IMG/VR virus record: IMGVR_UViG_3300020045_009368
Coordinates: 35,780-99,779 of that record
DNA: 64,000 nucleotides
Direction: 5' to 3' (one strand)
Source: a virus
This document shows, piece by piece, positions 27,031 to 48,046 of this stretch (position 1 is its first letter; each line of letters starts with the position of its first letter). The position numbers were made by a program, and so were the translations under genes. Below the pieces are notes generated by a model. It made no database searches. It was given only the letters and a program-made list of their open reading frames with translations, and was not told where the DNA came from.

Positions 27031-27088
27031 TGGGATATAGCTCAATTGGAAGAGCAGTGTTTTTCTAGGTTCAATTCCTAGTATCCCA
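27031..27088 (+). ncRNA. tRNA-like RNA lacking the anticodon arm
   Basis: Acceptor tgggata/tatccca, D-arm gctc-aattggaa-gagc, 9-nt linker agtgttttt, T-arm ctagg-ttcaatt-cctag. Confidence 0.75.
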
Positions 27089-27156
27089 ACTAACAAATTT
27101 TCATAATTTTTGTTAGTAAAATGTTAGTAAAATAACATTTTGTTTTAGTTAGTTGG

Positions 27157-35653: not shown

Positions 35654-36259
35654 ATGAAAAAAAAGTGTATATTAACTAAAGGTTATGCATTAACAGAAGG
35701 TTCAGAATATGATGTAATTAAAGAAGAAAAAGGTTATATCTTTATTGTAAATGACAATGGTAAAACTGCAAGATATGTTTCAGAATTATTTGAAAATCAA
35801 GTTGCTGCACCATTACCACCACCTGTACCAGAACCTATTGTATTAACTGAAGCACAGTGTATTAATAGTATTAATGCTGGAGTTACACAATTTAGAAATA
35901 CAGATAATGAAATAATTCAATTAAATTTACCAGATTTAAGTTCTAATGAATCATCTATTTCTTGTGGTATTTTTGAATTTCAAGGAATTAATAGTCTAAT
36001 TGAAGCAATTGAAGAATCAATGCCAGAAAGTGATGATGATAGAATTTCTCTTAAAAAAGCAATTTTAAAAAAGAAAATTCTTAGACAATTATCTCAACAA
36101 GGTGGATATGCAATCGCTTTATTATCTACAAATTTAGATATAGAAGAAGATGTAATTGAAGTTATGGATGAAATTGCACATTTTAAATCTAATGGAGTTG
36201 TAAATCCAAATTCTCAAAATACAATTAAATTGTGGGGTTTCTATAAAAATCAATTATAA
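35654..36259 (+). CDS. SH3-like N-terminus plus family B (GNAT-like?) domain
   Basis: LTEGSEYDV; Pro linker; ISCGIFEFQG ... NPNSQNTIKLW. Confidence 0.55.
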   Translation: MKKKCILTKGYALTEGSEYDVIKEEKGYIFIVNDNGKTARYVSELFENQVAAPLPPPVPEPIVLTEAQCINSINAGVTQFRNTDNEIIQLNLPDLSSNESSISCGIFEFQGINSLIEAIEESMPESDDDRISLKKAILKKKILRQLSQQGGYAIALLSTNLDIEEDVIEVMDEIAHFKSNGVVNPNSQNTIKLWGFYKNQL

Positions 36260-43443: not shown

Positions 43444-45054
43444 ATGAAAAATAAAAAAATAGGTATTGTTGGGCATTTTACAGGTCCTAATAGTTTTGGA
43501 ATCACTAAACCATATATGGAATTTTTTCAACATTTTGGTGAAATTATTATGTTATCTCCTTGGGATGAATCTCCAAGAGAATTAGATTTATTAGTGTTAC
43601 CTGGTGGTCCAGATGTCAATCCTTTTAGATATTTAACTGTTGAAGACAAATTAGATATAAATGTTGGTGTTCCTTGTATTGTTCGTGAAAAATTCGATAG
43701 AGAATTATTACCTCAATATATTGAAAAACAAACTCCAATTTTCGGGATAAATTAAGCATGTCCCACTATATAGTGATATATAGTTAAAAACGCGGTGAAC
43801 TCATGGAACGCTGAAATGCCAATCATGAGCTAAGCTTAGAGAGAAATCTCTTTGAAAGTGCAACGACTAGGAATCGAGATTAAGTTCTTCATTGTTGAAG
43901 AATATGTCAGTAATATTCCCAAGAGCGCCGTGGTTCTTATAAAAATTAATTAACTTAATAATGTTAATAGAAAAAGTTTCTAATTGTTCAAAATTAGCTT
44001 CATTTTTCATTGCATTTGCAAGTCTTGACAAAACAATAATATTACCTTTAATATACCCTTTAGAGTTATCTATTCTATCAATAGTAGCTCTTGAAATATC
44101 ATTAAAATTTAATTTATCATAATCATTACCTAAGTTTAAAATCTTATGGTTTTTATTATTATTATAATTTAATTTAATGTTTAATAAAGGACAATATTCA
44201 GGTAATTTAATATCTTCATAATGTAAATCAAAATCTAAATTTCTTCTTTTTGAAGAATATTTTACATTACGAATCATATAACCTTTAATTCTATCTTCTT
44301 TAGATAAATAATTATTATGAGTAAATGCTGGTTTTAAACCAAAACATTCTCTTATATAACCTATTCTTCTACGTGGGATATTAATTAATTCAGATATTTC
44401 TTTATCTGTATAATTTTGATTAATTAAAATTTCGATTTTATCAGCAGTTTGTTGATATTTTTCTTTATTCATTGTGATTTGTATTTAAAGTTACAAATCA
44501 CAATATACAACAATTTAATCAAAAAGTCAAGTAAATTAACAATTATTTTATATCTTTTTTAGATATAAAAATTATAAGAATATGATATAGTCTGAGCTTA
44601 CACAAATAGAAAGTGTAAGAAGTATAGGATAAAGAGCCTATACGATAACAGTCCTTGATGCAGAGGACATCAAACTTTAGCTGTACATTTTGGTGCTAAA
44701 TTAGTTCAAGATATGTATCATGAAACTAATCCAGATCATGACAGAAGAAAAAGAGTTCATACAATTAGAACTACAGAAGCTGTAAACTTAATTCCAGGTC
44801 TTGAAATGATTGATTTTGAATCAAACAGCTTACATCATCAAACTGTAGCTTTTGCTCCTGCAAATGCCGCTGTAATAGGTTATTATAAACCTACAGATCT
44901 TAAAGTTAAAGATTATGATGAAGAAATTGAAGCTTTAACATATTTTCCTAACTATCCAGCACATACAGTGCAATGGCATCCTGAAGAAATTTATGATAAC
45001 TTGTCAATTGCATGTATTAGACACCTTTTAAGTTTAAGTGATGAAGAAGTATAA
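43444..45054 (+). CDS. PuuD-like gamma-glutamyl hydrolase (class I GATase), spliced: join(43444..43748,44658..45054), 233 aa
   Basis: Exon 1 LVLPGGPDV...PIFG; splice restores FGICRGHQ; exon 2 NSLHHQ, VQWHPE. Confidence 0.9.
43867..44472 (-). CDS. Intron-encoded HNH-family homing endonuclease (antisense)
   Basis: N-terminal HTH; PEYCPLL, ATIDRIDNSKGYIKGNIIVLSRLANAMK. Confidence 0.82.
   Translation of the reverse strand: MNKEKYQQTADKIEILINQNYTDKEISELINIPRRRIGYIRECFGLKPAFTHNNYLSKEDRIKGYMIRNVKYSSKRRNLDFDLHYEDIKLPEYCPLLNIKLNYNNNKNHKILNLGNDYDKLNFNDISRATIDRIDNSKGYIKGNIIVLSRLANAMKNEANFEQLETFSINIIKLINFYKNHGALGNITDIFFNNEELNLDS
44471..44532 (-). promoter_or_regulatory. Internal promoter plus 13-bp hairpin overlapping the HNH start codon
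   Basis: caatatac 44501-44508; attgtgatttgta/tacaaatcacaat 44471-44504. Confidence 0.6.
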
Positions 45055-45844
45055 ATTAATTAAAGAATATCCTGGTAGTCCTAGTTTAAATACTAATGTT
45101 ACAATAGATGAAACAGGTTATAATTGTTTAAATTGTTCAAATGATTTAAAACCAGAAAAATATCCAGAATTTTGGCAACTTGTTGTTGAAAAAGATTATG
45201 AAATATTATCTTTAATTGTTAATAAAGATTATAATACTTTATATAAAGGAGATATTGTAACTAAGAAAAAGAATGATTGGATTGGTATTTCTAAAGATAA
45301 TAAAACAATTTGTTTTTCTCAAAATAATAATACTTTGGAAGAATATGATCATTGGTCTATAAATAGTATTAAAAGATTATCTGATGGTGAAATATTTACT
45401 ATTGGTGATAAAATTGGAACTCCAGGTAGAATTTTTCCTATTGTTGAATTTAAAATATATAATAATGAAAATACTATATTGATTAGTTCTTATTTTAATA
45501 AACATGGAAGTGGTCGTTATAATCAAAGATTAAAAGATTTAAAAAAAATTAAACAACCATTATTCACAACTGAAGATGGTGTTGAAATTTATGAAGGTAA
45601 TATTTATTATAAAGTAGTTAATGATACTTTTCAATTACTTATAATGGAAAATGCATCTAAAGGAGAAAGTTTAAAAAGTAAAGTATTTTCAACAAAAGAA
45701 AAAGCTGAAGAATATATTATTATGAATAAACCTTGTTTAAGTATTAATGAAATTTTAAATTTATATAAAGGACAAATAATCGATTTCACTCTTAAACCGA
45801 TTAGAATAAAAAATCTAGTTAAAACAAAATTAAAAAATGATTAA
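45038..45844 (+). CDS. Mosaic hypothetical protein
   Basis: YEILS...SIKRLSDGEIFTIGD module resembles one in 27271-29136. Confidence 0.7.
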   Translation: MMKKYKLIKEYPGSPSLNTNVTIDETGYNCLNCSNDLKPEKYPEFWQLVVEKDYEILSLIVNKDYNTLYKGDIVTKKKNDWIGISKDNKTICFSQNNNTLEEYDHWSINSIKRLSDGEIFTIGDKIGTPGRIFPIVEFKIYNNENTILISSYFNKHGSGRYNQRLKDLKKIKQPLFTTEDGVEIYEGNIYYKVVNDTFQLLIMENASKGESLKSKVFSTKEKAEEYIIMNKPCLSINEILNLYKGQIIDFTLKPIRIKNLVKTKLKND

Positions 45845-46697: not shown

Positions 46698-47058
46698 AAC
46701 TGAAGAATTTACATTAATAAATAGTATTTTTCCTAGAGTTTGGCAAACTAAATATCAAAATCTTAATGTTATAGAATCTCCTGTAATGAATTGTCAACAT
46801 TGTTCAATTGGTGGATTTGAAAATATTTTAAGAAGAAAAAGTATTATAGATATTGGAAGACAATTAAAAGAAATTCAAAAACTAGCTAATTTTGATCGTA
46901 GAAATTTTATAGTAGATATAAATAATGACTTTTTAGAAAAATTAAATAAAGTATTTAAAAATAGAATTCTTTTACAATCAGAATACATAAGTAGCAATGG
47001 TAATGATCGTGTATTGTGTATAATTAGTTTTAATAAAATAAAAAAGAAAAATGAATAA
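46690..47058 (+). CDS. Family B (GNAT-like?) small protein
   Basis: NCQHCSIGG ... FIVDI ... YISSNGNDRVLCII. Confidence 0.55.
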   Translation: MYKTEEFTLINSIFPRVWQTKYQNLNVIESPVMNCQHCSIGGFENILRRKSIIDIGRQLKEIQKLANFDRRNFIVDINNDFLEKLNKVFKNRILLQSEYISSNGNDRVLCIISFNKIKKKNE

Positions 47059-48046
47059 AAATCAAGACTATTGGATAAGTGCAGTTCAAGATGCATTTAA
47101 AAATAATAAAAATAGTAAAGAACAAATTAGAATATATATTGAAACATGTGATCCTGTTAAATATAGAGATACACCTGGTAAAGATATAGATGAAAAAGCA
47201 GATTTTATATTTAATTATAAAAAAGAACCAGAAAAACCTAAAGAAAAAATTAAAATTATTTTATTAGTTGCTAATGATACAGAACCAAATGAAGATATTA
47301 AATATCTAAGTACAGATTTTGATATTACATTAATGAAACATTCTGAAATTGGAACTAAAACTCCTGATTTAATTTTATTTACAGGTGGTGAAGATGTTAA
47401 TCCTGATATATATGGTGAAAAAGAAGGTAAATATACATCTGTAAATAAAAAAAGAGATGAAATAGAAAGTAATATTTATTGGAATTTTCCAAAAGTACCT
47501 AAACTTGGTATTTGTAGAGGAGCTCAGTTTTTAACAGTAATGTCAGGTGGTAAACTTGTACAACATCTTGAAAATCATGGTAGAGATCACACTATTCAAG
47601 TTGAAAATAGAGGTAAATATCATATGACTTCTACACATCATCAAATGATGTATCCTTTTAATATGAATAAAAATGAATATGAATTAATTGGTTATTCTGA
47701 ATTCTTTAGAAGTAAAACTTATCTTAATGGTAATAATGAAGAAATTGAAACAACTAAAGATTTTTTAGAAGCTGAAATAGTTTATTATCCTAATACAAAA
47801 TCATTATGTATTCAAGGGCATCCTGAATATAATCATTGTGAACAAAGAACTAAAGATATGTGTTTAAATCTAATTCATAATTATTTATTTTCTAAAAAAG
47901 AAATTAAAAATACTAAATCATCATATTCTTGGGATGATGAAAATGGAGATTTTGAAGAATATGATGAAGCACCTATTCAAATATTTAAAGAAAAAGATTC
48001 AATACCTAGTTATTATGGAAAATTTACACAAACTATTAAAAGATAA
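47051..48046 (+). CDS. Second class I glutamine amidotransferase / PuuD-like hydrolase
   Basis: LFTGGEDV, LGICRGAQ, STHHQ, IQGHPE. Confidence 0.9.
   Translation: MNKNQDYWISAVQDAFKNNKNSKEQIRIYIETCDPVKYRDTPGKDIDEKADFIFNYKKEPEKPKEKIKIILLVANDTEPNEDIKYLSTDFDITLMKHSEIGTKTPDLILFTGGEDVNPDIYGEKEGKYTSVNKKRDEIESNIYWNFPKVPKLGICRGAQFLTVMSGGKLVQHLENHGRDHTIQVENRGKYHMTSTHHQMMYPFNMNKNEYELIGYSEFFRSKTYLNGNNEEIETTKDFLEAEIVYYPNTKSLCIQGHPEYNHCEQRTKDMCLNLIHNYLFSKKEIKNTKSSYSWDDENGDFEEYDEAPIQIFKEKDSIPSYYGKFTQTIKR

Follow-up and report, generated by a model that had tools for sequence, protein, structure and literature searches.

The DNA studied here is a 64,000-nt stretch of the IMG/VR virus record IMGVR_UViG_3300020045_009368 (positions 35,780 to 99,779; hereafter the window), in which a gene for a hydrolase of the Peptidase_C26/class-I glutamine amidotransferase (GATase) fold appears to be interrupted by a group I intron that carries, on its opposite strand, an open reading frame (ORF) for a putative homing endonuclease. 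As the first-pass annotation of the window had pointed out, the list of ORFs breaks the gene in two (43444–43755 and 44713–45054). Exon 1 ends in TTC GGG AT at 43748, two bases into the Ile codon ahead of the catalytic Cys, and exon 2 begins A TGC AGA GGA CAT CAA, with the codon of the Cys nucleophile first and the WHPEE His/Glu motif further on. When the exons were joined by script, the predicted spliced junction, ...TTCGGGAT/ATGCAGAGG..., lay in a 702-nt ORF of 233 amino acids reading ...TPIFGICRGHQT...QWHPEE..., and the joined protein contains both the nucleophile elbow G-x-C-x-G-x-Q (FGICRGHQ) and the His–Glu pair HPE (QWHPEE). The exon ends, the 909-nt intron and the restored FGICRGHQ given in the first-pass annotation proved exact, with a continuous joined frame.

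Profile matches place the two halves in one protein. Pfam PF07722 and PF00117 exceed their cut-offs on the separate exons, which abut on the Peptidase_C26 profile (positions 110 and 112) with the split Ile codon between them. An unspliced mRNA would meet an in-frame stop at 43753–43755, two codons into the intron, and no start codon opens exon 2 at the junction, its first in-frame ATG lying 18 codons downstream, beyond the Cys. Three other readings were considered and rejected, namely a group II intron, an intein and a gene split into two working halves, since the junction offers no start codon and the Cys would become residue 1. As far as sequence analysis reaches, the hydrolase gene is interrupted by a group I intron one base ahead of the catalytic Cys codon, and the junction is established. 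Because the gene is whole and not two fragments, pipelines that split it would miscount one enzyme of the phage gamma-glutamyl/amidoligase cluster. The ORF after exon 2, at 45038–45844 (PHROG 11079, unknown function, E 3e-54), overlaps the last 17 nt of the hydrolase gene; no protein of that family was seen beside the intronless Leptolyngbya phage homologue described below.

Intronless relatives of the gene define the insertion point independently. Scanning IMG/VR with exon 2 returned 12 loci, which together with one cultured phage, Leptolyngbya phage Lbo-JY46, made 13. The joined protein aligns unbroken across residue 102/103 in 11 of the 13, the Leptolyngbya phage included; here the homologues read P-I-F-G-I-C-R/L-G, the closest being 62–65% identical, and an L005-type intronless target has the sequence GGGATATGT. 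At one locus, L001, a 1032-nt insert stands at exactly the position of the window intron. The nearest intron-minus allele came from the public sequencing runs, none of which contained more than 19% of the sampled words: in a 13-kb freshwater-metagenome contig (run X4), about 98% identical to the window on both sides, the intron is precisely absent. Intronless alleles, which the first-pass annotation had proposed to seek in relatives, thus exist both among these 11 homologues and in a near-identical contig.

The X4 contig skips 43734–44661 and has 19 other letters instead, giving the allele GGTATTTGT. Over the 19 nt at the insertion site (43734–43748 plus 44658–44661) it differs from the window by six synonymous changes, compared with about 2% differences elsewhere; either the intron-bearing allele has a co-conversion tract here, or the X4 sequence is a variant that resists cleavage. 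All intron-bearing alleles have the junction GGG AT/A, as the P1 helix requires, and the intronless ones vary (GGA ATT, GGT ATT, GGG ATA). Such uniformity could come from short exon flanks being co-converted when the intron homes, from selection to keep P1 paired, or from the two together.

The insert can be folded into a complete group I core. Helices were read by hand and then counted by script over nine full-length relatives, and P1 and P10 were checked in 17 family introns. The first-pass annotation had proposed that the guide GCAT-GTCCC pairs with both exons; P1, with a U.G pair at the splice site, and P10 were confirmed and covary with their exons. The U.G pair is found in 16 of the 17 introns by script and in L019 by eye, and all 17 have an adjacent P10 and a terminal G. 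The P1 guide tracks the local exon throughout (GGGU/GCCC, AGAGGAU/GUCCUCU, CGUGGGU/GCUCACG and GCUGU/GCAGC), and the P10 guide does the same (ACAU/AUGU in L017, UACAU/AUGUA in L001). The P3, P7, P8 and omega G named in the first-pass annotation are likewise all present. Together, the 11 continuous intronless alignments and the P1/P10 covariation in 16 related introns take the assignment far beyond chance.

Compensatory double changes occurred in P2, P3, P4, P6a, P7.1, P7.1a, P8, P9 and P9.1, and pairing was canonical in 533 of 585 cells by our own count, helices spanning the ORF included; P7 is invariant, hence uninformative for covariation. For the 5′ half, RNAalifold predicted P1, P2, P3, P4, P6a, P7.1 and P7.2, with 21 of 51 pairs compensatory, and it recovered P9 likewise. 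P8 is a 9-bp stem closing the 629-nt loop that holds the antisense ORF. The J6/7–P7 and J8/7–P7′ consensus can be aligned to Rfam Intron_gpI, and the P7.1/P7.2 insert between P7 and P3′, a hallmark of subgroup IA, is present; Vibrio phage introns that score above the Rfam threshold are extended at the same point. The hairpin spanning the 3′ splice site covaries too (GCGAC/GUCGC in L017, GGCC/GGCC in L035). Its exon strand, positions +7 to +11 of exon 2, is the P1 exon strand of introns inserted at a second site (site B below), some of which lack P2. Positions of all features are collected in Table 1.

Table 1 Features of the interrupted hydrolase gene, its predicted intron and the antisense ORF (window coordinates).
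Feature	Position	Strand	Remarks
Exon 1, Peptidase_C26/class-I GATase gene	43444–43748	+	Pfam PF07722 profile positions 57–110; aligns to residues 1–102 of intronless homologues
Exon 2	44658–45054	+	PF07722 positions 112–219, PF00117; PHROG 7218 glutamine amidotransferase
Predicted group I intron, IA-like	43749–44657	+	909 nt
P1	43744–43748 with 43760–43764	+	exon strand GGGAU with GUCCC; U.G at splice site (U43748.G43760)
P10	43756–43759 with 44658–44661	+	guide GCAU with exon 2 AUGC; adjacent to P1 strand
P2 hairpin	43766–43783	+	6/7 pairs compensatory
P3 5′ strand	43791–43797	+	pairs with 43926–43932; 7 pairs by RNAalifold, one C-G/G-C swap
P3 3′ strand	43926–43932	+	
P4 and short P5	43800–43829	+	7-bp P4, U-A/G-C swap; agrees with Rfam P4–P5 columns
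P6/P6a hairpin	43835–43858	+	GAAA loop; 3/5 P6a pairs compensatory
P7 5′ strand	43865–43869	+	GACUA; pairs with UAGUC 44588–44592; pseudoknot with P3; invariant in 9/9 aligned introns
P7 3′ strand	44588–44592	+	UAGUC
P7.1/P7.1a/P7.2	43870–43919	+	between P7 and P3′; 50-nt two-helix insert; RNAalifold, compensatory changes
P8 5′ strand	43934–43942	+	UUCUUAUAA; pairs with 44572–44580; 7/9 pairs compensatory; first pair U-A, A-U or G-C
P8 3′ strand	44572–44580	+	
P9 and P9.1	44597–44619 and 44622–44643	+	5/7 and 4/7 pairs compensatory
Hairpin across 3′ splice site	44651–44668	+	intron GUCCU with exon 2 AGGAC; omega G at 44657; read by eye
Antisense ORF, putative homing endonuclease	43867–44472	−	201 aa; N-terminal helix-turn-helix (HTH) and PacI-like beta-beta-alpha nuclease domain
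Promoter-like region	44471–44530	−	TTGACT 44530–44525, 17 nt, then TATATTGTG, then palindrome
Palindrome	44471–44504	−	13-bp arms; contains ATG

Relatives of the intron were sought with the endonuclease protein and with the 20-nt J6/7–P7–P7.1 motif, and were found on phage contigs only; the exact J6/7–P7–P7.1 pattern had no match in 185,579 bacterial and archaeal genomes, which gives no prophage clue to the host. Every member whose flanks were read sits in a class-I GATase/C26-type gene within the same kind of phage gene cluster. Site A (G-I^C) is occupied in the window and in L001, L017, L030 and L035. Site B, 10–12 nt downstream and after C-R/L-G, holds the introns of L018, L019, L022, L025–L028, L034, L038–L040, L042 and L043. 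A third target, site C, lies just ahead of the QWHPE catalytic-His motif and is used in L044 (IMGVR_UViG_3300020047_014395), with P1 GCUGU/GCAGC. A second paralogue of the hydrolase gene in the window (47051–48046) is intronless, and in L019 the roles of the two paralogues are swapped. The claim of the first-pass annotation that the intron homes into a conserved, selected site is consistent with a family found only at the GICRG and QWHPE active-site motifs.

Global nucleotide identity was uninformative for comparing exons with introns, AT-rich sequences aligning at 70–80% by chance, and protein and BLAST identities were used. In L017, the host protein is 32–36% identical to that of the window and the intron core is 91% identical. 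L030 has lost nearly the whole endonuclease ORF, leaving a 369-nt intron, and L036 (IMGVR_UViG_3300020577_006027) is a 5′-truncated relic in which P1–P5 and GATase exon 1 are gone and a zinc-ribbon-like ORF abuts the remnant, with the antisense ORF, the 3′ core and GATase exon 2 retained. Presence and absence in near-identical genomes, spread to divergent genes, the ORF-less L030 and the relic L036 together give the picture of a classical homing cycle. On these sequence comparisons, the intron is placed in a family of mobile introns, not described before, whose members all occupy phage GATase genes, at the Cys or the His motif. Full-text searches of the literature brought up no phage GATase gene with a group I intron; crAss-like and Fpv-related phages have been described as having intron-rich core genes (PMC7886860).

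The antisense ORF inside the intron and the existence of the intron family are additions to the first-pass annotation, which names neither. The product of the antisense ORF matches PHROG 3322 endonuclease (E 7.5e-21) and, more weakly, HNH/EndoVII families. HTH_23/GerE-type matches lie at its N-terminus; the nuclease part has no match in Pfam, and sequence searches of the Protein Data Bank (PDB) gave none for the nuclease domain. We found 451 homologues in a large protein collection and 413 in IMG/VR, and the closest relatives (P0002–P0008), 76–79% identical, are encoded on contigs of about 100 kb. An AlphaFold (AF2) model with a predicted local distance difference test score of 84 has a three-helix HTH at the N-terminus and, further on, a beta-beta-alpha unit, with strands at 128–133 and 145–149 and a helix at 150–156 carrying the invariant N153. 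The invariant residues of the family further include D132, R133, Y140 and N144. PacI was the best structural match by two methods, and Y140 sits in the inter-strand loop, the loop in which PacI has its catalytic Tyr, and is a candidate for the corresponding residue. PacI is a documented case of an omega-loop Tyr in place of the catalytic His (PMC5714182). On the best reading of these data, the ORF would encode a tyrosine-type His-Me-finger nuclease.

The ORF overlaps the ribozyme core. Its stop codon is the complement of CUA within the P7 5′ strand, and its last ~25 codons (43867–43942, ~76 nt) are the complement of P7, P7.1, P7.2, P3′ and the P8 5′ strand. The corresponding tail motif, GALGNITD...LSLDS, is kept in the close subfamily. 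Since the tail is modelled with low confidence and varies exactly where P7.2 varies, we attribute its conservation to the RNA. The tail is missing from more distant relatives of the endonuclease, several of which are sense-oriented in other group I introns, with the P7′ motif directly after the ORF. Another antisense arrangement was seen in Flavobacterium phage FpV21 (KT876726.1, ~66270–67330; L014:2440–3520), where an apparent, unannotated group I intron interrupts a JAB/MPN-type gene with exon 2 IHSHNTMQVFFSGTD. The record annotates separate hypothetical proteins around this intron, whose 5′ core is 72% identical to that of the window and which has a 249-aa LAGLIDADG ORF that runs antisense and lies downstream of the P7′ motif. 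An endonuclease gene in antisense orientation may thus be a repeated feature of Flavobacterium-type phages.

On the coding strand of the endonuclease ORF and upstream of it, all eight family members examined share TTG...N~19...TA-n-n-TTTG followed by the dyad TTTGTAA...TTACAAA. The element TTG...TA-n-n-TTTG corresponds to the Bacteroidetes promoter consensus. From this sequence pattern we infer that the antisense ORF has a conserved Bacteroidetes-type promoter of its own.

Together, these comparisons argue that the window very probably contains a functional, mobile IA group I intron in a phage Peptidase_C26/class-I GATase-fold hydrolase gene, with homing by a PacI-like nuclease that is encoded antisense and expressed from its own promoter. 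Exon continuity, agreement with the splice-site rules, helices backed by covariation, presence/absence polymorphism and the distribution of the family are seen in the sequences themselves; actual self-splicing, the activity and cut site of the nuclease and the use of the promoter are deduced, and the course of events would be as follows. Upon transcription of the hydrolase gene the ribozyme would fold, and an exogenous G would attack at 43748, behind the U of GGGAU. Exon 1, once released, would in turn attack after the terminal G (44657), aligned by P10, which would restore the Ile and Cys codons and GICRGHQ. The endonuclease, encoded in the P8 loop on the opposite strand, would be expressed from a promoter of its own and would cut intronless alleles of co-infecting phages near the GICRG-coding sequence; repair would copy the intron plus a few flanking exon bases.

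Several findings weigh against this reading, some of them on the side of the RNA and others on that of the protein. In the RNA, P5 of the window intron is only 2 bp long. The search with Intron_gpI that the first-pass annotation had suggested gave a significant local match (43739–43997, 27.9 bits, E 8e-5; P1 to the P7 5′ strand and P3′) but one below the gathering threshold of RF00028, 50 bits. At that threshold the whole window yielded no Intron_gpI match, the sole match being tRNA-like, and an RF00028 search of the phage's own genome found none at E ≤ 1, which we judge to be a limit of sensitivity and not absence. The tRNA-like match (27031–27089, 46.5 bits) has 17 model positions of the anticodon arm replaced by 4 nt. 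Spliced RNA was not found either: the sole RNA-library contig bridging the site has the synonymous variants of the intronless allele and is not a spliced product. Sub-threshold scores and missing spliced RNA would fit an insert that is a decayed, non-splicing relic or a plain endonuclease-gene insertion, the hydrolase gene being a pseudogene or two fragments. We consider this very improbable, because the core helices of the window copy are all intact and canonical, the exon frames are open, in phase and free of lesions, no start codon at the junction would serve exon 2, and the family's compensatory substitutions show the RNA fold to be under selection. The Rfam model does not fit the 630-nt P8 insert and scores AT-rich helices poorly; the ORF-less orthologue L030, with identical junction and guide, aligns to Intron_gpI end to end, still under the threshold (37.4 bits, E 4e-8). 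The window core is also similar by BLAST to unannotated stretches of many phage genomes, among them the terL introns of Vibrio phage R16F, which score 72–94 bits, above the Rfam threshold. In that phage (vB_VpaM_R16F, OP793884.1; L015:600–3100), terL is annotated as five coding sequences, separated by four ORF-less group I introns. An assembly chimera would be conceivable for a virus contig derived from a metagenome, but it is the least credible of the alternatives: the same architecture and junction recur in independent assemblies (L001/L029, L017, L030 and L035), and contigs identical to part of the insert are present in another run (X3).

On the protein side, the alignments of the endonuclease family hold no invariant His, the usual catalytic-His position reading DRID. 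The structural match to PacI is moderate (Foldseek probability 0.87, E 0.27; VIA-align Z 7.0, root-mean-square deviation 2.7 A over 88 residues), and the zinc-binding cysteines of PacI are not conserved. The sigma-70 scan lists the promoter site, but it counts 16 sites where 15 are expected by chance in shuffled sequence, the region being AT-rich and the genome 25% GC; because that count is at chance level, the promoter reading is drawn from the conservation across the family. An intron that is real and splices could, on such grounds, harbour a protein that is no longer, or never was, a DNA endonuclease but a DNA-binding regulator or maturase-like factor, the intron itself being immobile or moved in another way, such as by reverse splicing. 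A repressor would be in keeping with the HTH at the N-terminus and with the dyad that overlaps the protein's own promoter, and the insertion points, which differ by 1–2 nt and always follow GGG(N)U complementary to the guide, would suit reverse splicing. We nevertheless regard this as unlikely. Tyr140, Asn153 and other core residues are invariant in 115 sequences, matching the Tyr-for-His solution of PacI; the intron is present or absent between genomes at ~98% identity, has reached host genes whose products are 32–36% identical and has one ORF-less member; and distant relatives of the protein lie sense-oriented inside other group I introns. A functional mobile intron with an antisense PacI-like endonuclease gene is thus the reading we prefer.

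The intron shares much with the phage IA2 introns, such as those of T4 td, nrdB and sunY, the DNA polymerase genes of Bacillus phages SPO1 and Bastille, the I-PfoP3I intron of cyanophage Pf-WMP3 (PMC3428280) and the multiple introns of Vibrio terL. Common to both are the architecture of a self-splicing intron with P7.1/P7.2 between P7 and P3′, the consensus sequences GACUA at J6/7–P7 and GAUAUAGUC at J8/7, a position in a highly conserved, active-site-coding stretch of a phage protein gene, a stop just inside the intron, an endonuclease ORF looped out of a peripheral helix and an intron that is optional in close relatives. Here, however, the host gene belongs to auxiliary metabolism (an amidoligase/ATP-grasp cluster) and not to DNA metabolism, packaging or structure, the endonuclease ORF lies on the opposite strand and overlaps the core, and several sites in paralogous genes are occupied. 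In full-text literature searches, antisense endonuclease genes in group I introns were reported from nuclear ribosomal DNA (rDNA) introns only (PMC3679873). One of these, Didymium iridis Dir.S956-2 (PMC3679873), likewise has an antisense endonuclease gene in a peripheral loop, which needs its own expression signals; introns of that type are eukaryotic nucleolar IC1/IE elements with His-Cys box enzymes and Pol II-type expression, whereas the present one lies in a phage protein gene with a putative bacterial, Bacteroidetes-type promoter, another nuclease family and ~25 codons complementary to P7–P8.

The putative endonuclease resembles PacI, of His-Me finger group 20 (PDB 3ldy, 3m7k; PMC5714182), in its HTH-like N-terminal domain and the predicted beta-beta-alpha core behind it, in lacking a catalytic His and in a conserved Tyr within the inter-strand loop. 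It differs in its low similarity (17% identity, Z 7.0), in the unconserved zinc cysteines and in its intron context, PacI being a restriction enzyme. I-TevI of the T4 td intron (PMC2988022) is likewise expressed from a separate promoter, and a dyad or hairpin lies at promoter and translation start, a likeness that suggests autorepression or transcript-specific translation; I-TevI is a sense-oriented GIY-YIG enzyme, and the control elements proposed here are read from conservation only.

We give roughly equal weight for and against a broader proposal, which would join an undescribed phage intron clade specialised on GATase Cys/His motifs to an antisense transcript for the PacI-like endonuclease, running from an internal Bacteroidetes-type promoter through the complement of the core. 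With bases shared in this way, making the endonuclease could hinder splicing and vice versa, through antisense pairing or transcriptional collision. The idea, raised with the first-pass annotation, that splicing could gate the pathway can be put in a more specific form, namely that splicing would be disturbed when the ribozyme core is transcribed antisense.

Most known phage group I introns lie in genes for replication, nucleotide metabolism, packaging and the capsid. The intron in the window is itself an ordinary element in a new kind of host gene; what appears novel is the specialisation of its family on GATase active sites, together with an antisense, core-overlapping, PacI-like endonuclease gene. 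That gene would make a compact system, with ribozyme and protein tail on complementary strands, possible antisense interference with splicing and a Tyr-for-His class of homing endonuclease. The miscounting of the split gene extends to at least 16 related loci. A family dedicated to the active-site motifs of an auxiliary-metabolism enzyme would widen the range of host genes of phage introns, and it would indicate that these GATase genes are conserved and often pass between co-infecting phages.

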